Shown here one piece after another: positions 6,554 through 44,540 of a stretch of 45,883 nucleotides of DNA. The notes under the pieces were generated by a model, which worked only from the letters and a program-made list of their open reading frames with translations, had not been told where the DNA came from and did no database searches. The position numbers were made by a program, and so were the translations under genes. How positions within the stretch are numbered: the first letter of the stretch is position 1; every line of letters starts with the position of its first letter. Origin of the DNA: an uncultured Candidatus Saccharibacteria bacterium (GTDB taxonomy: Bacteria; Patescibacteriota; Doudnabacteria; UBA920); the NCBI GenBank assembly GCA_964561655.1, contig CAZLQG010000002.1, positions 1-45,883 on the forward strand. The letters run 5' to 3'.

Positions 6554-8026
6554 ATGCAAGAATTCTTTGGCGCCATCCCGCATCAATTCAGTGAAAAAGA
6601 CAAAGCCCTTTTGGCCAAGGCTTATGAGTTTGCCCAAAAAGCCCATGCCGGCCACAAACGGCTGAGCGGCAGAAACTATTTTGAACACCCCAAACAGTCG
6701 GCGATTATTTTAGGGCAGATATTTCCTGACGCTCCGACTTTGGCCGCCACATTAATGCATGACATTCCCGAAGACACTCCTCTCAATTTGGCGGATGTAA
6801 AAAAAGAATTCGGGGACGAGATTGCCAAACTTATAGATGGCGTTACCCAGCTCGGACACGTAAGGATGAAAAACAGCCAGGACAAATACTACGTGGAAAA
6901 CCTGCGCAAACTTTTTATTGCCACCAGCCAGGACGTGCGGGTAATTTTAATTAAGCTCGCCGACCGCATCCACAACATGAGGACGATTGAATTTATTCTG
7001 AAAGAAAAGCAAATTAAAATTGCCACGGAAACTTTGGAAATTTTTGCCCCCATTGCCGCGCGCTTGGGCATCAACAACTGGAAAGACGAACTGCAAGACT
7101 TAGCGTTCAGAATTGTCCAGCCGCAGGAATTCATCCAAACCCATAAAACCCTAAAGTCAATTCTGGAAAAAAAGGAACAGAACGTCAAAGATATGCAAAA
7201 ACAGCTGGTGCAAGTTTTAAGAACAGAAGGCATAAAATTTGTAGACATAACTGGCAGAGTCAAACGGCTTTATTCGCTCTACCAAAAACTTAAAAAATAC
7301 GAAGGCGACATCAATAAAATTTACGACATTATCGCCTTAAGGGTAATCACCAAGACCACCGCCGACTGCTATTCCGCCCTTGGAGCCATACATAAATATT
7401 TCCAACCCCTGCCCAACCGCATCAAAGATTATATTGCCAACCCCAAACCCAACGGCTACCAAAGCATCCACACCACGGTGTTTGACAAAAACAACGAAGC
7501 CTTTGAAATCCAAATCAGAACGGACCTGATGCACGAAGAGGCGGAGCGCGGCATCGCGGCGCACTGGTTTTATGCCGAAGAAGGCAAGCCGGAAAGCGGG
7601 GTTAAAACGCAATCCCAATGGATCAAAGAACTCCGCGCTTGGCAGGAAGAAACCATGAACCCGGAAGAATTTTTGGAAAACTTAAAGATAGATTTGTTCC
7701 GCCATCGCATTTTTGTCTATACCCCCAAAGGCGACATTAAAGATTTGCCGCTAGGCGCCACGGTGATTGATTTTGCTTTTGCCGTACATACCGACTTGGG
7801 TTACCACATGATGGGAGCCAAAATAAACGACAAAATGGCCAGTATTTACGGCGAACTGGAAACGGAGGACGTGGTGGAAATCATAAAAACCAAACAGCCG
7901 GCGAAAATCTCTCCTGACTGGCTGAAAGCCGCGAAAACACCAAGCGCCCGCAACAAAATCCGCCATTATCTAAGCAAAAACAAAAGCGGGCTAATTGAAA
8001 GAGTGAGAGGCCTAATCGGAAAATAA
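6554..8026 (+). CDS. bifunctional (p)ppGpp synthetase/hydrolase, RelA/SpoT family
   Basis: HD motif HDIPEDT, synthetase block YQSIHTTV/RTDLMHEEAERG and TGS block VYTPKGDIKDLPLGATVIDFAFAVHT. Start moved to ATG 6554 because the track start 6521 is a TTG lying upstream of the TGtTATAAT promoter element (6536-6544). Confidence 0.9.
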   Translation: MQEFFGAIPHQFSEKDKALLAKAYEFAQKAHAGHKRLSGRNYFEHPKQSAIILGQIFPDAPTLAATLMHDIPEDTPLNLADVKKEFGDEIAKLIDGVTQLGHVRMKNSQDKYYVENLRKLFIATSQDVRVILIKLADRIHNMRTIEFILKEKQIKIATETLEIFAPIAARLGINNWKDELQDLAFRIVQPQEFIQTHKTLKSILEKKEQNVKDMQKQLVQVLRTEGIKFVDITGRVKRLYSLYQKLKKYEGDINKIYDIIALRVITKTTADCYSALGAIHKYFQPLPNRIKDYIANPKPNGYQSIHTTVFDKNNEAFEIQIRTDLMHEEAERGIAAHWFYAEEGKPESGVKTQSQWIKELRAWQEETMNPEEFLENLKIDLFRHRIFVYTPKGDIKDLPLGATVIDFAFAVHTDLGYHMMGAKINDKMASIYGELETEDVVEIIKTKQPAKISPDWLKAAKTPSARNKIRHYLSKNKSGLIERVRGLIGK

Positions 8027-38966: not shown

Positions 38967-40520
38967 TTACTTTTTTATAAACGTAACCGCTTCCTGCCCC
39001 TCATTCAGACCGCTAATTATTTCAACTAAGCCTCCGTCCGCTTCTATGCCTGTTTCCACTTCCACTTCTTCGTAAGTTTTTTTCTTGGGGTCAATAATCA
39101 CCCTGACGATTTTTTTGCCATTGGAAATTACCGCCCTTTGCGGAACCGCTAAAACTCCCTGCTTCTCCCCGGTAAGTACAGTCATATTCGCGGTCATGCC
39201 CGGCTTGATTTCTTCCAAATTATCCAAAGTGGCGGTGACTTTGTAATTTACCACGCCCGAGACTATGGTAGCTGCGGGGTTAACAGTGGCGACTTTGGCA
39301 ACAAAATGCCTATCCATACCGAGCGCGTCAAAAGTCACATCCACTTCCTGCCCCTCCTTGACTAGGGCAATATTGGCCTCGCTAATATTAACTTCCACGT
39401 GCAAATTGCCCACATCCTGCAAAACAATTACCGGAGATTGCGCCGAGGCCAGTTCGCCAGGTTTAACATCCACCTTGGTGATAGTGCCGGCTGCCGGCGC
39501 TCTTATGATGGTATTTTCTAAATCGGCTTCCGCAGCCTGAACCTGACCTAAAGCAGAGGTAACAGCAGCCTGCACGGCCTGCAGGTCAGCCGGCCTTGCT
39601 TTGATCTTTTTTAAATCTAAAGCCGCCTGCGCCGCCGCAACCGTGTTCTCTGCGGTGGTTATTGCGCTCTTTCGGGCTTCCAAAGCCGTTTGGTAAGCGT
39701 TGTAATTGGTAATATAAGTGCTGGCTAAAGTGTTAGGAATTTTAATAGTCCAATAGTCGCCATTATATGTGGTTCCGGAAAAAACAATGTATAAGCCGCG
39801 CCTGCCCAAAGGCACGGGTGTGGTTTTAACATCTCCGCCAGCGCTTTCAAGACCTGTAAGAATAAAGGCATTGTTGTTGATTGTAATTTTATAAATTCCC
39901 TGCTCTTCGCTGTTATAAGTCCCGGAAATGGTAGCCGTGGCGCTTCCGGAATTGCTGGGATTCGCGACCGCGGAAATGGTGGAATTTAAAAGCGCGTTAT
40001 AAGCATTCTTTACCGCCGTGTCCTGCTGCTGTTTTACGGTTTCCAGCACGTTCTTGGCGTTATCCAAAGTCACCTGGCTGACCACGATATCTTCGCTAGA
40101 AGCGCCATCCAAAACCTTTTGATAATTCGCCTGCGCCTGCGCGAATGCGCCCCGCGCCTGAGTCAAACGCGCTACCGAATCTCTTTGGTCTACACTCGCC
40201 AAAACTTCACCCTGCATGACCTTTTGCCCTTCCTTCACATTAACTCTTGCAACAATCCCGCTGGTTTTAAAACTTAAAGATAAATCCGTTTGCGAAACTA
40301 CCTGCCCGGTAGCCAATACTGTTTGCTTTAAGTCCTGTTTTTTTACGATTTCGCTGACAATACTGTCCGCTGGGTTATCACCTTTAAAAATACCTATTAA
40401 GATAGGTATAAAAATCACCAAAATGACGACTGTCCAAATTACTCTTTTTTTAGTGATTTTGATGCCAAACAATTTTTTTGGCTTTTTGATTTGATTGTTA
40501 TTTTCCGCAGTTCCGTTCAT
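38967..40520 (-). CDS. HlyD/MacA-family periplasmic adaptor protein
   Basis: 517 aa with N-terminal TM helix, lipoyl-like halves (TSGIVARVNVKEGQKV...IRAPAAGTITKVDVKPGE) and a long coiled-coil region carrying an extra insert. Confidence 0.85.
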   Translation of the reverse strand: MNGTAENNNQIKKPKKLFGIKITKKRVIWTVVILVIFIPILIGIFKGDNPADSIVSEIVKKQDLKQTVLATGQVVSQTDLSLSFKTSGIVARVNVKEGQKVMQGEVLASVDQRDSVARLTQARGAFAQAQANYQKVLDGASSEDIVVSQVTLDNAKNVLETVKQQQDTAVKNAYNALLNSTISAVANPSNSGSATATISGTYNSEEQGIYKITINNNAFILTGLESAGGDVKTTPVPLGRRGLYIVFSGTTYNGDYWTIKIPNTLASTYITNYNAYQTALEARKSAITTAENTVAAAQAALDLKKIKARPADLQAVQAAVTSALGQVQAAEADLENTIIRAPAAGTITKVDVKPGELASAQSPVIVLQDVGNLHVEVNISEANIALVKEGQEVDVTFDALGMDRHFVAKVATVNPAATIVSGVVNYKVTATLDNLEEIKPGMTANMTVLTGEKQGVLAVPQRAVISNGKKIVRVIIDPKKKTYEEVEVETGIEADGGLVEIISGLNEGQEAVTFIKK

Positions 40521-40634
40521 GTTACTTGCCCCGTTAGAGATGATAATAATCTTTGCGTATTATCTCCTATCCAAAACTGATCTGCTTATTGGCTCGTGTT
40601 AGATAGAATTCTCTAATGGGGTAAAAATTAATTC

Positions 40635-40940
40635 TTATTTGCCTTTTTTGGCCCCTGCCTTGCCGAAAGTTGATTCAACATATTCCTTCACGGTCTTTTC
40701 GCCTTCTGAATTACCCATCATAGTGGTTGCCATATTAATAATGTCCGCGATTTTATCTACCTTAATCATAGACAAAACTTTGCCCATTTTGGTAACCACC
40801 ATTAACTGGTCGCCCGGCTTTATGTCCAGTTCGGAGCGGGCTTTGGCCGGTATTACAATCTGCCCCCGACTTCCCACCGTGGTCGTGCCGTAAAGCTTGT
40901 TTTGCTTAATTAACTTAAGACTTACATTAAATTTAACCAT
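40635..40940 (-). CDS. AbrB/MazE/SpoVT-family DNA-binding protein
   Basis: 101 aa from ATG 40940. GQIVIPAKARSELDIKPGDQL swapped-hairpin motif. The longer track ORF (to 41066) runs through the promoter. Confidence 0.75.
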   Translation of the reverse strand: MVKFNVSLKLIKQNKLYGTTTVGSRGQIVIPAKARSELDIKPGDQLMVVTKMGKVLSMIKVDKIADIINMATTMMGNSEGEKTVKEYVESTFGKAGAKKGK

Positions 40941-40958
40941 ACTTTTTATTTTAATTCC

Positions 40959-41009
40959 ATATGTATGATATTTCATACATATCATACACGAAAATAAATA
41001 AAAAGTCAA
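40959..41009 (-). promoter_or_regulatory. promoter with overlapping 10-4-10 palindromic operator upstream of the abrB-like gene
   Basis: Minus strand reads TTGACT (41009-41004), 17 nt, TATGAT (40986-40981). A perfect palindrome ATATGTATGA-tatt-TCATACATAT occupies 40959-40982. Confidence 0.6.
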
Positions 41010-41090
41010 GACTTTATTCCTCCCCTCTCTCCCCTTGCGACCATCGGCTCTAAGGCTCAGGCTCAAAGAGGAAAGAATTAGGGGGCGAGG

Positions 41091-41131
41091 GTAAAAAGAA
41101 ATAGGAGCCGGCAGCGCAGTGCGCCGGCTCC
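41091..41131 (-). terminator. rho-independent terminator after the 60-aa ORF
   Basis: GGAGCCGGC-N10-GCCGGCTCC followed by ATTTCTTTTT on the minus strand. Confidence 0.75.
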
Positions 41132-41151
41132 AGGGATGATGACTGTTTCCG

Positions 41152-41334
41152 CTACCAATATAGGGGCATATTGCGAACGGTTTCTGCCGTCCTTACTTTT
41201 TGTTCGGATAACTCCAGCGTAGCTGGATCTGTCCCTTGCTTTTTGAACCCCGACTCTTCGCCGAAGTTTTCTTCTGTCTGTTCCTCTCTTTTACGCGGTT
41301 CCCATGTGGGACCGCCCTGAGCGGTTTCTGTCAT
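41152..41334 (-). CDS. small acidic, likely disordered protein (60 aa)
   Basis: MTETAQGGPTWEPRKREEQTEENFGEESGFKKQGTDPATLELSEQKVRTAETVRNMPLYW. GAGGAG SD about 8 nt upstream of the ATG and its own terminator. Confidence 0.45.
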   Translation of the reverse strand: MTETAQGGPTWEPRKREEQTEENFGEESGFKKQGTDPATLELSEQKVRTAETVRNMPLYW

Positions 41335-41535
41335 CGCTATTTTCTCCTCTTCCAAATTGTATTTTGGCCTTGAGACCAAAAAATAAAAGTTAAATTTTAA
41401 CTTCAATTTTCTGGTCTCAAAATTATTATTGTTCGAACGATCTACCCGACTACGCTTTGACAAAATCAAGGCGGACGGGAGTCGAGAATGTTCTGCTTAA
41501 AAATTTAGCTTTTCGATAAACTTAAAGACTAAATT

Positions 41536-41584
41536 TTAAAAAAGGTGAAAGGAAGCCGGGCCGGGTACTACTGGTCCGGCTTCC
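41536..41584 (-). terminator. rho-independent terminator after the GC-rich segment
   Basis: GGAAGCCGG...CCGGCTTCC followed by TTTCACCTTTTTT on the minus strand. Confidence 0.7.
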
Positions 41585-41606
41585 TTGGTTATGGAGATGC
41601 ATGGCA

Positions 41607-41843
41607 TTACCCCCTTATCCGCATAGGATTAAGGGCGAAAAACAGGGGTTTGCCCTTACATTCCGGGCACCTATTGTCGAGGGCCGACACCTGCTGCAGA
41701 CAGCCTGTGCAGAGATGAAATGCCCGGTTTTGGGGAAGTCGTAGCCCCATAAGCCACCCCGCCTGGCGAATCCGAATCCTGACTGGTAACTTGCACAGCC
41801 ACCAGTCCAGCAAGAGACGCACGATGATCCATGCTTTACGCAT
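41607..41843 (-). CDS. small zinc-ribbon protein (78 aa), or spurious ORF inside a structured GC-rich RNA
   Basis: GGACGAGGAGGAAGC-ATG gives a strong SD. MRKAWIIVRLLLDWWLCKLPV...CTGC-x11-CPEC. GC content is visibly above the surrounding sequence. Other frames are also open, so coding is uncertain. Confidence 0.4.
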   Translation of the reverse strand: MRKAWIIVRLLLDWWLCKLPVRIRIRQAGWLMGLRLPQNRAFHLCTGCLQQVSALDNRCPECKGKPLFFALNPMRIRG

Positions 41844-41919
41844 GCTTCCTCCTCGTCCCGCGGCAAGGCGGGACATTCCTGATTGTTGTTGGTTCGCTTG
41901 CCCGTCGGGGCAAGCTAGG

Positions 41920-42011
41920 TAGGGATACTCAGATTCGAACCAAGATTTCATCCTTTCGGAGCCTTCAGACGGCTCTCCTTGGATGCGTCCTAACCCTTAG
42001 ACGATATCCCC
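41920..42011 (-). tRNA. tRNA-shaped gene with a 27-nt anticodon loop region that forms a second arm (non-canonical; not assignable)
   Basis: Hand fold: GGGGATA-TC-GTCT-AAGGGTTA-GGAC-G-CATCC-[AAGGA GAGCC GTCTGAA GGCTC CGAAA]-GGATG-AAAT-CTTGG-TTCGAAT-CTGAG-TATCCCT-A. U8, G18G19 and the TTCGAAT T-loop are all canonical. Confidence 0.6.
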
Positions 42012-42013
42012 AC

Positions 42014-42044
42014 AAACAAAAAACCGAGCTCACGTTGAGCCCGG
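42014..42044 (-). terminator. intrinsic terminator (candidate attenuator) 2 nt upstream of the tRNA-like gene
   Basis: Minus strand reads CCGGGCTC-AACGT-GAGCTCGG (8 bp, one G.U) followed by TTTTTTGTTT. Confidence 0.7.
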
Positions 42045-42083
42045 AAGTCTTAAGTCAAATCTTTGTTCGTGTAATTCGTGCGA

Positions 42084-42179
42084 TTAGTGCATTTGTGAAT
42101 TCAACTCAAAATTTCTGGCCTCAACGTGCCCAGTAAAAAAGTAAAAGAAAAACCAGAAATTTTGAGAGAATTTATTCAT
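42084..42179 (-). CDS. 31-codon aromatic-run mini-ORF (candidate leader peptide)
   Basis: MNKFSQNFWFFFYFFTGHVEARNFELNSQMH, translated by hand codon by codon. The ATG lies 9 nt after the -10 hexamer and has no SD. Confidence 0.4.
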   Translation of the reverse strand: MNKFSQNFWFFFYFFTGHVEARNFELNSQMH

Positions 42180-42188
42180 ATTTGTCTT

Positions 42189-42216
42189 ATTATAGCAGGA
42201 TTTTTACTCTTGTCAA
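42189..42216 (-). promoter_or_regulatory. near-consensus sigma70 promoter
   Basis: Minus strand reads TTGACA (42216-42211), 16 nt, TGcTATAAT (-10 at 42194-42189). Confidence 0.7.
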
Positions 42217-42240
42217 TAAATCCCCTATTTTTAAAGGTTC

Positions 42241-42290
42241 TTGACAATAATGTTAGAATAATATAACATTATGTTAGATATATTTAACAT
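42241..42290 (+). promoter_or_regulatory. promoter plus two tandem palindromic operators of the DUF2178/XRE operon
   Basis: TTGACA at 42241-42246. The operators are ATAATGTTA-N8-TAACATTAT (42247-42272) and ATGTTA-N8-TAACAT (42271-42290), with centres 21 bp apart. Confidence 0.6.
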
Positions 42291-42307
42291 CATTAAAATA
42301 AAACGTT

Positions 42308-42688
42308 ATGAACAAAAAAACCTTCAAAATTATCCAAATTATCACTGCCATGGTTTTAGGCGTAACCGTGGCCGTTTCCGTTAATTTAGGCAACTATCTG
42401 CTGGCCACGGCGGCAATTCTCGCGGCCTTTGGCTTTTTATACGTCTTAAAAAGCAAGGTCAAGGAAGTTCTGGCCGACGAGCGCGACTACCAAATCGCAG
42501 GCAAGGCCTCACGCATGGCCATTACCATTTACGTTGTTGTCCTAACTCCCATTGGCGTTGCTATGATGGCTTTGTCCAAAACCCATCCGCAATTTGAGTA
42601 CACAGCCAGCGTTTTACTCTACTCGGTCTGTGGCCTGATGCTTTTGAATGCGGCTTTGTTTAAAATTTACAACCGCCACGGGGAATAA
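42308..42688 (+). CDS. DUF2178-like membrane protein
   Basis: 126 aa with four hydrophobic helices and a central LADERDYQIAGKA motif. It is followed 4 nt later by a small XRE regulator, the usual pairing. Confidence 0.7.
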   Translation: MNKKTFKIIQIITAMVLGVTVAVSVNLGNYLLATAAILAAFGFLYVLKSKVKEVLADERDYQIAGKASRMAITIYVVVLTPIGVAMMALSKTHPQFEYTASVLLYSVCGLMLLNAALFKIYNRHGE

Positions 42689-42691
42689 TTT

Positions 42692-42886
42692 ATGCGCAAC
42701 AAAATCAAAGAACTAAGAGCCAAGTTTAATCTGACGCAGGAAGAACTGGCGCAAAAAGCGGGGGTCAGGCGCGAGACCATTGTATTTTTGGAAAAAAACA
42801 AATACAATCCTTCCTTGGCTTTGGCATACAAAATCGCCAAGGTGCTTAAAACCACCATTGAAGAACTTTTTGAATTTGAAGATTAA
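42692..42886 (+). CDS. XRE/Cro-type helix-turn-helix transcriptional regulator
   Basis: 64 aa: [45 protein letters not shown]. Confidence 0.9.
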
Positions 42887-42909
42887 GAACCTATTTGAAA
42901 AATATTCTT

Positions 42910-43077
42910 ATGAACAAAAAACTTTCCATTGCTATTGCCGCCGTAATTTTCGCCCTTGCCATGCTTTTTGGCTTTCGTCTGCTTAGCGGCGAAGATGACT
43001 GGATTTGCCAAAATGGGGAATGGGTGGAACACGGAAAACCCGAAGCGCCGAAACCTACTACGCCCTGCCCGCAATAA
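42910..43077 (+). CDS. small membrane-anchored/secreted protein
   Basis: MNKKLSIAIAAVIFALAMLFGF..., then DDWICQNGEWVEHGKPEAPKPTTPCP (two Cys). The track start 42895 is TTG. Confidence 0.5.
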   Translation: MNKKLSIAIAAVIFALAMLFGFRLLSGEDDWICQNGEWVEHGKPEAPKPTTPCPQ

Positions 43078-44473
43078 TTTTTTTAACCTTTTTTTGCAGA
43101 CCGTTGGCTTTGGCAATTTGTTCGTCGGTGATGTTAAGCAAATTTTTCTGCCTTTGTTTTTCCGGCACTACAATTCTGTACATTTCGGGCAAAAGCGTTT
43201 CTATGCTTTCCCCTACCGTAATGGACTTGGCTAAATTCTGATATTTGCGATACATATTGCCGGCCAAATAGATATCCAGGCCGGTTGGTTTGATTAATTG
43301 GCCTTGATGATATAGAAAAGCCAGATTGCCTTCCGCGAAATTATCGGTAGGCACTTTGTTTATTCTTTGCGCTAATTCTGATGCTTTAAGCTCTTTTAAT
43401 AGCCCAACAAACTTTTCTTTAATTTCTGTCAGCCAGGTGATTTGGTTAAAGCCCCCAAGACAGGTTATTTGATAGTAAAGCAAAACCAAAAAGCAAACCA
43501 AACTGGTTGGGTATATTTTTTTTTCTTTCAATGCTCTAGCAACTTCCTTAGGAATTAAAAATACTGAGATAGCAGAACCTTGATCTCTAATCTTTGATCC
43601 CTGGCGGAAAAGTTGAAGACGCTTACCCGTTGCATCAATCCCCCAAAAAAGAAAACTCCCCTTTTTGCCAGGTCCAAACGCGCCTTTTAGCCCTTCAAAA
43701 TATTTTTTTATTAATTTCCAGCCATTTTCTTTAAAAAATAACCGATGCAACACATGGCTTTTGTCTTTGGCTATAAGCTTTACTATAACCTCTGAAATCA
43801 AGTCTTCCAAAGGCACATAAACAACTTTTGGGGCTTTGGGAAATATTTTTTGCCACAAACGATAATTAATTAAATTAATTTGGGCGGAGAAAGCTTTTTG
43901 TTTCAAAACTTTTGGGTCCAAAAAAATTTTTTGCGCGGGGCGCTTCAAATTCTCGTCCCCGATTTTTACCAGCATTCCTTGGGCCTGTTTCTTTGTAAAA
44001 GCTTTCTGCGCCAAGACAGGCTTATTTTTTTCTTTGTCGGTAAAAATCGAAATTTTTTTTAGTCCGCCTTTTTGACGATAAAGCAGGCATCCCGGCCAAG
44101 AAGAATTGTTCAAAGAAACCCCTTCCGTGCTTAAAACTATCAAATACTCCAAATTGTCATACAAGCTGTAAATCAGATTGGAATTAACAAAAAAGGGGTG
44201 GTTTAAAATCCCATGGTGGTCGATTGTTGAAACCAAAGGCAGCTCTTTCAGCTGACGAATAATTTTTAAAACATGGGGGTTCGGCAATTGGTTTTTCAAC
44301 GTTCTTTCCCATATTCCAAAAAATTTTTTATCTAAACTCCCGAGGGCTATTTCCCATGAATTTACGTAATCAAACAAACTCAAACTGCCCTGCTTCCTGT
44401 AAAGCTCTCGCAAGACAGAACGCCTTTTGAAAACTGCTGTTTTTAAATATCTAATGTTGGTTAAAGCGGGCAT
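43058..44473 (-). CDS. large hypothetical protein (471 aa)
   Basis: No motif recognised. Start moved to ATG 44473 because the track TTG at 44506 lies inside the upstream terminator U-tract. TATAAT (44485-44480) ends 6 nt before the ATG. Confidence 0.65.
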   Translation of the reverse strand: MPALTNIRYLKTAVFKRRSVLRELYRKQGSLSLFDYVNSWEIALGSLDKKFFGIWERTLKNQLPNPHVLKIIRQLKELPLVSTIDHHGILNHPFFVNSNLIYSLYDNLEYLIVLSTEGVSLNNSSWPGCLLYRQKGGLKKISIFTDKEKNKPVLAQKAFTKKQAQGMLVKIGDENLKRPAQKIFLDPKVLKQKAFSAQINLINYRLWQKIFPKAPKVVYVPLEDLISEVIVKLIAKDKSHVLHRLFFKENGWKLIKKYFEGLKGAFGPGKKGSFLFWGIDATGKRLQLFRQGSKIRDQGSAISVFLIPKEVARALKEKKIYPTSLVCFLVLLYYQITCLGGFNQITWLTEIKEKFVGLLKELKASELAQRINKVPTDNFAEGNLAFLYHQGQLIKPTGLDIYLAGNMYRKYQNLAKSITVGESIETLLPEMYRIVVPEKQRQKNLLNITDEQIAKANGLQKKVKKIIAGRA

Positions 44474-44498
44474 ATCACAATTATAATTGGTAACTGCA

Positions 44499-44540
44499 TA
44501 AAACAAAAATCCCGTCCCGAGCGAAGTCGAGGGACGGGAT
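44499..44540 (-). terminator. rho-independent terminator after the pilin gene
   Basis: ATCCCGTCCC-N12-GGGACGGGAT followed by TTTTTGTTTT on the minus strand. Confidence 0.8.

Follow-up and report, generated by a model that had tools for sequence, protein, structure and literature searches.

A candidate ribosome-mediated attenuator with a mixed Phe/Tyr/Trp codon run in Candidatus Doudnabacteria

Background

In Escherichia coli, the leaders of pheL-pheA (Rfam family Phe_leader, RF01859) and pheM-pheST consist of a short open reading frame (ORF) with a run of Phe codons, the alternative RNA helices 1:2, 2:3 and 3:4, and an intrinsic terminator ahead of the regulated gene. The element described here shares each of these features. 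It lies, throughout its length, on the minus strand of a 45,883-nucleotide stretch of DNA (contig CAZLQG010000002.1 of assembly GCA_964561655.1, from an uncultured Candidatus Saccharibacteria bacterium placed by GTDB in the Doudnabacteria), which is referred to below as the window. A preliminary description of this DNA, made from the sequence alone, had likened the element to pheL and pheM. From the analysis presented here we consider it likely, with good confidence, that this is ribosome-mediated attenuation of transcription, with charged Phe-, Tyr- and Trp-tRNA as the signal sensed.

The logic of such switches is best known from trpL: a ribosome stalled in region 1 frees helix 2:3, a ribosome at the stop codon permits helix 3:4, and an untranslated leader forms helices 1:2 and 3:4. 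Leader-peptide attenuation has mainly been described in Proteobacteria, Actinobacteria and a few other cultivated groups, and a literature search found no report of it in the Candidate Phyla Radiation (CPR)/Patescibacteria.

Two further systems are close in layout. In Corynebacterium glutamicum, the aroR leader (Phe-Tyr-Phe) attenuates aroF, which encodes 3-deoxy-D-arabino-heptulosonate 7-phosphate (DAHP) synthase, via ribosome stalling (Neshat et al. 2014, as summarised in PMC11802643). The trpL, leuL, ilvL and thrL attenuators of Streptomyces and Actinobacteria have leaderless leader peptides, in which the transcription start is the start codon, and some of the leaderless Streptomyces attenuators govern non-biosynthetic genes, for example those for aminoacyl-tRNA synthetases (PMC8079986).

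Results

Promoter, leader ORF and alternative helices in the window

The leader comprises the following features.

42216-42189, minus strand: sigma-70-type promoter, with -35 element TTGACA at 42216-42211, a 16-nt spacer and extended -10 element TGcTATAAT at 42197-42189 (TATAAT at 42194-42189)
42179-42084, minus strand: predicted leader-peptide ORF, leaderless or with a 2-3 nt leader; 31 codons and a stop codon at 42086-42084
42166-42153, minus strand: region 1, the 5' arm of hairpin 1:2, CUCAAAAUUUCUGG, codons 5-9, within the stem of the minimum-energy fold
42158-42135, minus strand: putative regulatory codon run, codons 8-15, UUC UGG UUU UUC UUU UAC UUU UUU (F W F F F Y F F)
42134-42132, minus strand: invariant Thr codon directly 3' of the aromatic run, kept in the family
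42128-42099, minus strand: region 2, made up of segment B (42128-42120), segment A' (42118-42105) and UUGAAU, with region 1 or region 3 as alternative partners
42060-42031, minus strand: region 3, AUUUGACUUAAGACUUCCGGGCUCAACGUG, the 3' half of which is the 5' arm and loop of the terminator
42044-42014, minus strand: intrinsic terminator (regions 3:4), with the hairpin at 42044-42024 and the U-run UUUUUUGUUU at 42023-42014

The promoter matches the consensus at 12 of 12 positions, carries a TG upstream of the -10 element, and was the sole perfect match in a promoter scan of 40500-43000. The ATG at 42179 lies 9 nt past the -10 element and has no Shine-Dalgarno sequence; transcription is predicted to start at about 42182-42179, and this position of the ATG, together with the conservation of the frame described below, would place a short ORF next to the transcription start. 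Its predicted product, MNKFSQNFWFFFYFFTGHVEARNFELNSQMH, has 31 residues, of which eight are Phe, and residues 8-15 read FWFFFYFF. Codons 8-15 are so placed that a ribosome stalled on them would mask region 1. The promoter, the leaderless start and the ORF with its aromatic run are all as the preliminary description had given them. The peptide has no Pfam or NCBIfam match, and no curated Rfam family covers the leader of the window at gathering thresholds.

The perfect 14-bp pairing that had been proposed between segment A (42166-42153) and A' (42118-42105) was recovered as an inverted repeat (I10; 14 nt, 100% complementary), and in RNAfold this stem grows to 18 bp plus an outer 5 bp. The 170-nt leader RNA folds with -44.4 kcal/mol (z = -4.3), a value equalled by none of 200 shuffles. 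Region 2 is also complementary to region 3 (I1; 30 nt, 77% complementary). The complementarity of segment B to 42039-42031, noted earlier, is one end of this pairing, but its 9 bp understate the antiterminator, which extends over about 26-30 bp. The upstream half of region 3, (A)UC(A/G)ACUUAAAACUUCC, is complementary to GGAAAUUUUGAGUUGA, which accounts for the invariance of the sequence GAGUUGA. The terminator hairpin, also as originally placed, has a 9-bp stem with six G-C pairs and a 3-nt loop and is followed by TTTTTTGTTT. Helices 1:2, 2:3 and 3:4 of the window are therefore mutually exclusive, and the last of them ends in a U-run.

Identification of a family of related leaders

Homologues of the leader were reached by three routes, and the related loci carry L numbers. 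Relatives of the 482-aa gene at 43058-44506 of the window are 41-49% identical and are named as Candidatus Doudnabacteria or Patescibacteria, two of them as Candidatus Saccharibacteria. In two Doudnabacteria/Patescibacteria metagenome-assembled genomes the leader was found by nhmmer directly downstream of the gene (L004, E = 4e-8; L005, E = 1e-10). In other relatives an AbrB-family gene comes next, with no leader unit between, and the leader unit therefore occupies a variable slot. A metagenome scan for a pattern made of both arms of hairpin 1:2 gave 24 matches, 15 of which were true homologues; the other nine (L016, L017, L018, L020, L022, L029, L033, L034 and L035) lacked promoter, ORF and terminator and were rejected. 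The window, L004, L005 and the 15 metagenome copies make up the first 18 leaders, and three more distinct leaders, added later, were reached through homology of a DAHP synthase, with no RNA pattern used. The family thus holds, besides the window, 20 further distinct sequences from Candidatus Doudnabacteria/Patescibacteria genomes and metagenomes. The sequences are related to one another, and the majority came from the pattern that fixes the arms of helix 1:2.

All 21 sequences have in common the predicted leaderless start, a frame leading into a run of Phe, Tyr or Trp codons, helix 1:2, helix 2:3 and the terminator, and a profile built from them recovers its members at nhmmer E = 1e-31 to 1e-44. 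The check proposed for the locus at the outset, which asked whether relatives keep the Phe run and show compensatory changes in the helices, gave a positive answer: the run is kept in 21 of 21, helix 2:3 covaries and the terminator stems vary.

A marginal match of the profile (E = 0.006) at the 3' end of a pilin gene, window 44608-44501 (minus strand), is probably due to chance. This gene end carries CCGGAAAUUUUGAG, which encodes GNFE and resembles the part of the leader from region 2 to the terminator.

Conservation of the leader reading frame

Of the first 18 leaders, 14 have TTGACA, a 16-nt spacer and TGnTAnnnT, and L030 and L032 have a TTGACA promoter of looser fit; the promoter is present in the three leaders linked to DAHP synthase as well. 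The start codon lies 6-11 nt past the -10 element in all 16 promoter-bearing members of the first 18 and 11-12 nt past it in the three DAHP synthase-linked leaders, so placed that the predicted mRNAs of the family are leaderless or nearly so.

Measured from the start codon, the last UUUUAC (the last one being taken in the window as well) lies at a distance that is 2 modulo 3 in 21 of 21 sequences, over five length classes of 32, 35, 38, 41 and 47 nt. L030 has a 13-nt insertion, and its GTG start brings the frame back into FWFYF. The other two reading frames run into early stops. Every member has an in-frame run of three to eight Phe, Tyr or Trp codons (72 Phe, 30 Tyr and 16 Trp codons in total), the length of which shifts by whole aromatic codons only, giving the variants FWFYF, FWYFYF, FSFYFYF, FYFWFYF, FGFFWFYF and FWFFFYFF. 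The Thr codon after the run varies synonymously only (ACT in 11, ACC in 5, ACG in 5).

The ORF is 26-34 codons long across the family and extends through region 2. Residues 2-5 and the tail after NFEL vary freely, and the conserved residues QNF, (V/A)E and NFEL are exactly those encoded where the RNA pairs. L040 has an indel of 2 nt behind the run that turns NFEL into EILS* and leaves the RNA unharmed. Conservation of the peptide is thus limited to the RNA-paired segments, the aromatic run and one Thr, a pattern that, as read from the alignment, is the one expected of a leader peptide and not of a functional small protein. A small hydrophobic, toxin-like peptide, which the preliminary description had kept as an alternative, does not fit the variable tails, the frameshift of L040 or a hydrophobic stretch of only about nine residues.

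Covariation and folding of the leader RNA

For helix 2:3, covariation was scored on an alignment of 18 sequences, in which columns 73-98 pair with columns 148-173 (26 bp). The helix is paired in 84.5% of cells, as against 48% after a slide of one column. Seven pairs are changed on both sides, which was equalled by 10 of 500 shuffles; the 11 double-change cells were equalled by none of the 500, and none reached the covariation score of 0.161 (vs 0.122). The clearest compensations occur where segment B meets the 5' arm of the terminator: GUUGAG:CUCAAC becomes GCUGAG:CUCAGC, UUUGAG:CUUAAA, GUUAAG:CUUAA or UUUGGA:UCCAAG. Helix 1:2 is paired in 96.8% of cells across the 18 sequences, and its arms are intact in five sequences obtained without the arm pattern, through protein homology alone. 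The differing loop lengths defeat MAFFT alignment of the terminator 3' arms, and the terminators were tabulated sequence by sequence; a hairpin with a U-run is present in 21 of 21, with many stem sequences and free energies of -9.3 to -16.8 kcal/mol.

The leaders were then folded with a stalled ribosome represented by a footprint from the A-site to 12 nt beyond it. In 19 of 21 sequences, an A-site placed on most of the aromatic codons removes the terminator from the minimum-energy fold; when the ribosome stands at the stop codon instead, all 21 form it. For the window, the terminator is missing for stalls at codons 8-14, and the stalled state is a long antiterminator of -34.7 kcal/mol. The stop codon always lies ahead of region 3 and 8-32 nt past region 2.

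The spacer that separates region 3 from the stop codon of the leader (42061-42098 in the window) measures about 5-45 nt across the family. Many members, L021, L026, L027, L037 and L039 among them, carry two to four repeats of the CACAGA/ACACAGA type in it, and others carry none. A binding site for a TRAP-like protein in these repeats was considered and rejected, the spacing being unfit and the repeats absent from many members.

Genes downstream of the leader

Three features follow the leader terminator in the window.

42011-41920, minus strand: degenerate tRNA-like gene, 2 nt past the U-run, with 27 nt replacing the anticodon loop
41843-41607, minus strand: 78-aa zinc-ribbon ORF (CTGC...CPEC), with the Shine-Dalgarno sequence GAGGAGGA at 41854-41847
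41586-41536, minus strand: terminator-like hairpin closing the regulated unit, arms 41586-41573 and 41562-41549 (I16; 14 nt, 93% complementary), then UCACCUUUUUU

A promoter scan of 42014-41607 on the minus strand found no promoter-like site, and the tRNA-like RNA and the zinc-ribbon ORF should therefore depend on read-through from the leader; the ORF is likely the regulated gene. Fifteen loci, the window among them, have downstream of the leader a small CxxC...CxxC ORF that is preceded by a strong Shine-Dalgarno sequence; in 13 of them it is the first ORF. The first downstream ORF of L032 has no Cys, and the contigs of L023 and L026 are too short to show the downstream gene. Several of the zinc-ribbon ORFs share a C-terminal F-x-x-W...F motif. 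Searches of Pfam and NCBIfam with the ORF of the window and its counterparts gave only weak, generic Pfam zinc-ribbon/RING matches, and a homology search with the ORF of the window found nothing.

A target of another kind was found in relatives. In L019 the leader (MVKNTQNFWYFYFTQAAETGNFELNKS) is followed, 57 nt past the U-run, by a Shine-Dalgarno sequence and a gene for a 334-aa DAHP synthase (Pfam PF00793, E = 4e-77; FXD regulatory domain PF18152, 2e-15; NCBIfam NF006421, 456 bits against a cut-off of 335). Close homologues of this protein in L040-L046 (84-89% identity; contigs from NCBI, ENA, JGI and Logan) show the same synteny and the same leader, so that the leader stands directly upstream of DAHP synthase, about 50-60 nt past the U-run, in four lineages: L019, L040-43, L044/45 and L046. 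DAHP synthase is the entry enzyme of Phe, Tyr and Trp synthesis. The puzzle raised in the preliminary description, that no amino-acid gene lies downstream, is partly resolved in this way: it holds in the window, and in four related lineages the target does belong to the synthesis of the amino acids that would be sensed. A tblastn search of the window with the DAHP synthase found no remnant, and the downstream region of the window is therefore not a decayed aroF.

Close relatives (79-89% identity) of the Doudnabacteria DAHP synthase (L019 6537-7541, P0002-P0005) occur only in this same synteny. Below them, identity drops to about 62%, and among the proteins at this level are some named Solibacterales, Terriglobia or Bryobacteraceae. 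This distribution suggests that the gene was acquired horizontally into a slot that would be under attenuator control.

A second attenuator-like element, related to the first, separates an 84-aa zinc-ribbon ORF from the DAHP synthase gene or from the first zinc-ribbon ORF. It was located by nhmmer at three places.

L019 7603-7727: second attenuator-like element, E = 9e-7
L044 3378-3508: second attenuator-like element, E = 2e-5
L004 8055-8131: second attenuator-like element, E = 0.44

This element has its own short aromatic ORF (MKNFKKIYWQFYPPF in L019, MNQLSKPTFSIYWPYRSSD in L044) and a segment UUUGAGUUCGG complementary to a terminator 5' arm, CCGGACUCAAAG, followed by a U-run. Just downstream of zinc-ribbon ORFs in L004 (about 7866-7990), L025, L028 and L031 there is, in addition, a conserved motif GAGGGCGAGGAATTT with hairpins after it, which may be another structured RNA or a 3' element.

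The tRNA-like gene

The tRNA-shaped RNA reported 2 nt past the U-run is present and scores 38.6 bits against Rfam RF00005, above the gathering score of 29, but it is a lineage-specific addition that stands outside the switch: it occurs in only two of the 21 members, the window and its closest relative L036, at the same junction. In the window a 27-nt hairpin replaces the 7-nt anticodon loop, and a canonical loop, U33 and a readable anticodon are lacking. The copy in L036, directly after the leader terminator, is 74 nt long and scores 36.1 bits; its loop is CAUCAAG (A33, 'UCA'), and its acceptor stem contains three G·U pairs. The D-arm of the tRNA-like gene resembles the tRNA-Glu type.

ARAGORN at default settings did not detect the gene of the window; at relaxed thresholds it does so, with a 20-nt 'intron'. 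The label that it gave, tRNA-Ser(cga) with an intron, was rejected because the gene lacks the long variable arm that tRNA-Ser needs, and tRNA-SeC(tca) for L036, obtained only at relaxed thresholds, is not credible. Neither of the two tRNA-like folds is convincingly better than shuffled sequence (z = -1.85 and -0.83). We treat the gene as a degenerate, tRNA-derived insert of one lineage that is not part of the switch; it may serve as a processing site for RNase P.

Neighbouring elements

A 25-bp hairpin at 41424-41367 (minus strand) stands ahead of a 60-aa ORF at 41334-41152 (minus strand). The two arms are similar to regions 2 and 3 (25 nt, 80% identical), and the hairpin has neither a region 1 nor a terminator 3' arm; to judge from this resemblance, it may represent a fossil of the attenuator, locked open, before a second small ORF.

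Divergent from the leader, window 42230-42886 (plus strand) encodes a DUF2178 membrane protein (42308-42688) and an XRE-type helix-turn-helix regulator (42692-42886), with TAACATAATGTTA-type palindromes nearby at about 42247-42288. Among the loci examined, the window is the only one in which this cassette stands between the leader and the 482-aa gene, and the cassette therefore looks inserted. An exact-match search with the DUF2178 protein gave nothing but an identical contig of 1.85 kb.

The promoter of the AbrB/MazE-family gene (40940-40635), at about 41010-40950 of the window (minus strand), contains the palindrome TATGAT(A/a)(A/t)GTATGAAA.ATCATAC. The palindrome is found in all the related loci (L003, L004, L005, L006, L007 and L008) and is probably an autoregulatory operator. 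In L037, a DUF3800-II RNA (RF02961; 43.6 bits against a gathering score of 43.2) lies at 7071-7006 (minus strand), about 3 kb from the leader.

Discussion

The comparison with pheL and pheM that had been made from the window alone is supported by the conserved frame and the aromatic run, by covariation in helix 2:3 and in the terminator stems, and by the presence of DAHP synthase after the leader in four lineages. In the mechanism that we propose, the strong extended -10 promoter would start transcription and a ribosome would load once the AUG emerges at or near the 5' end. With aromatic tRNAs charged, the ribosome would pass codons 8-15 and region 2 and reach the stop codon at 42086-42084; with region 2 occupied, the terminator at 42044-42024 and its U-run would form, and RNA polymerase would halt at about 42014. 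When aromatic aminoacyl-tRNA is scarce, the ribosome would stall in FWFFFYFF, covering or separating region 1. Region 2 (42128-42099) would then be free to pair with region 3 (42060-42031), using up the 5' arm of the terminator, and polymerase would continue into the tRNA-like RNA (42011-41920) and the zinc-ribbon ORF (41843-41607). If the leader is not translated at all, helices 1:2 and 3:4 would both form and transcription would end.

Several observations weigh against this mechanism. The window and most of its relatives have, in place of an amino-acid gene, a fast-evolving zinc-ribbon ORF of no detectable family, and CPR bacteria generally lack amino-acid biosynthesis, so that the benefit of a starvation signal is puzzling. 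Covariation in helix 1:2 carries no information, since both of its arms were set by the search pattern for most sequences. L036, the closest relative of the window, retains the terminator in the stalled-ribosome fold. The unconstrained minimum-energy fold is already the antiterminator in 9 of 21 leaders, and the decision must therefore be kinetic. The aromatic run is U-rich, and U-rich loops readily yield Phe codons; in L032 the run is degraded (FIRTYF). The invariant Thr and the constant distance of 25 nt from the run to region 2 (19 of 21) go beyond simple codon sensing. Finally, both ends of the transcript, and the translation of the leader ORF, are predictions from sequence.

The strongest rival explanation is a terminator/antiterminator switch whose effector is not the translating ribosome but, for example, a small ligand, an uncharged tRNA or a protein that binds RNA, with the ORF incidental to a U-rich loop. 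Covariation in a three-helix arrangement does not by itself demand translation, the CACAGA-type repeats between regions 2 and 3 of many members could bind a protein, and contacts at the RNA level could underlie the UUUUAC that never varies, the Thr codon and the constant spacing of 25 nt. It is hard, however, to see why a switch of this kind would hold the frame from start codon to run over five length classes, including a compensated 13-nt insertion, have the start codon coincide with the predicted start of transcription in 19 of 21 leaders, vary the run by whole aromatic codons only and leave the third position of the Thr codon free. The spacer repeats are also absent from many members, including L004, L005, L028 and L031, and neither a T-box nor any known riboswitch was matched in Rfam, whether at gathering thresholds, at E <= 10 (window) or at E <= 5 (L019). 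We judge this explanation improbable.

More improbable still is a leader for nascent-peptide or drug-dependent arrest, of the ermCL, tnaC or ABC-F type, in which F-x-F-Y-F-T would stall on an antibiotic or a metabolite. It would account for the conservation of the aromatic run and the Thr at the amino-acid level, with synonymous Thr codons, for the MacB/HlyD-type ABC export system that adjoins the locus, and for the non-metabolic targets of most loci. Arrest peptides normally need a fixed sequence and spacing, however, and the run varies here in both length and composition (FWFYF, FSFYFYF, FYFWFYF, FWFFFYFF); the ABC genes of the window have their own promoter, with terminators in between, and the DAHP synthase targets of four lineages fit the sensing of aromatic amino acids.

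The least probable explanation is an independent, highly expressed small gene for a 31-aa aromatic peptide (toxin-like or signalling) or a small RNA of about 165 nt, unrelated to the genes downstream: a consensus promoter and a strong terminator do flank a unit of about 165 nt, the ORF is open in 21 of 21 and the RNA folds well (z = -4.3), but the peptide has no Pfam/NCBIfam matches, is conserved only at the RNA pairing and the run, varies at its ends, is frameshifted through its C-terminal half in L040 and has a hydrophobic stretch of about nine residues that is too short for a membrane helix, the covarying, terminator-destroying helix 2:3 would have no role in a stand-alone gene, and the downstream unit, which begins 2 nt past the U-run, has no promoter.

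Read as a ribosome-mediated attenuator, the family differs from each of the described systems. Phe_leader was the top sensible Rfam family with a full-length alignment, at 20.9 bits (E = 1.3) for the window and 20.4 bits (E = 1.9) for L019; these scores are far below the gathering score of 55, and there is therefore no detectable homology and the family is not a member. The pheL and pheM leaders are led by Shine-Dalgarno sequences, whereas the leaders described here are predicted to be leaderless, with a mixed Phe/Tyr/Trp run and an ORF that extends through region 2; the host is a CPR bacterium and the targets are mostly zinc-ribbon ORFs. In layout, the aroR-aroF arrangement of C. glutamicum is exactly that of L019, L040, L044 and L046, with mixed aromatic codons and DAHP synthase; the family belongs to a different phylum, its run is longer and the target in the window is not aroF. 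The leaderless Streptomyces attenuators share with the family the start at the start codon and a hairpin with a U-stretch. They serve other amino acids, have much shorter peptides and show no sequence similarity, and their transcription starts were mapped, while those given here are predicted. For trpL of E. coli/Salmonella the comparison concerns mechanism only: the positions of the elements in the family would fit its logic, with the difference that the trpL stop codon precedes region 2 and that of the family lies 8-32 nt after it. The mechanism is thus a textbook one, of the trpL, pheL, pheM and aroR type, and what is new is the phylum, the long leaderless ORF through region 2, the mixed run with its Thr, and the targets.

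A further reading, which we put forward tentatively and regard as somewhat unlikely, is that an aromatic-tRNA attenuator has become uncoupled from biosynthesis in an auxotrophic episymbiont and drives starvation-induced zinc-ribbon proteins and, in the lineage of the window, the tRNA-like RNA. If this were so, the tRNA-like RNA, non-canonical in its extended or altered anticodon arm, could act as a decoy or a regulator or provide a handle for processing; attenuation by leader peptides would serve CPR bacteria as a general sensor of nutrition, and the orphan products would take part in a host-dependence response.

Conclusions

The alignment of 21 sequences could seed a new Rfam family. If the attenuator mechanism is correct, the family would link a DAHP synthase that was apparently acquired horizontally to a resident regulatory element, and would flag the unannotated zinc-ribbon proteins and the tRNA-like RNA as candidate products of a starvation response. 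It would imply that reduced, uncultivated bacteria with leaderless mRNAs couple transcription and translation tightly enough for attenuation and monitor their aromatic aminoacyl-tRNA, and the leader would be an in-genome marker of a signal of Phe, Tyr and Trp availability in organisms thought to depend on a host for amino acids.

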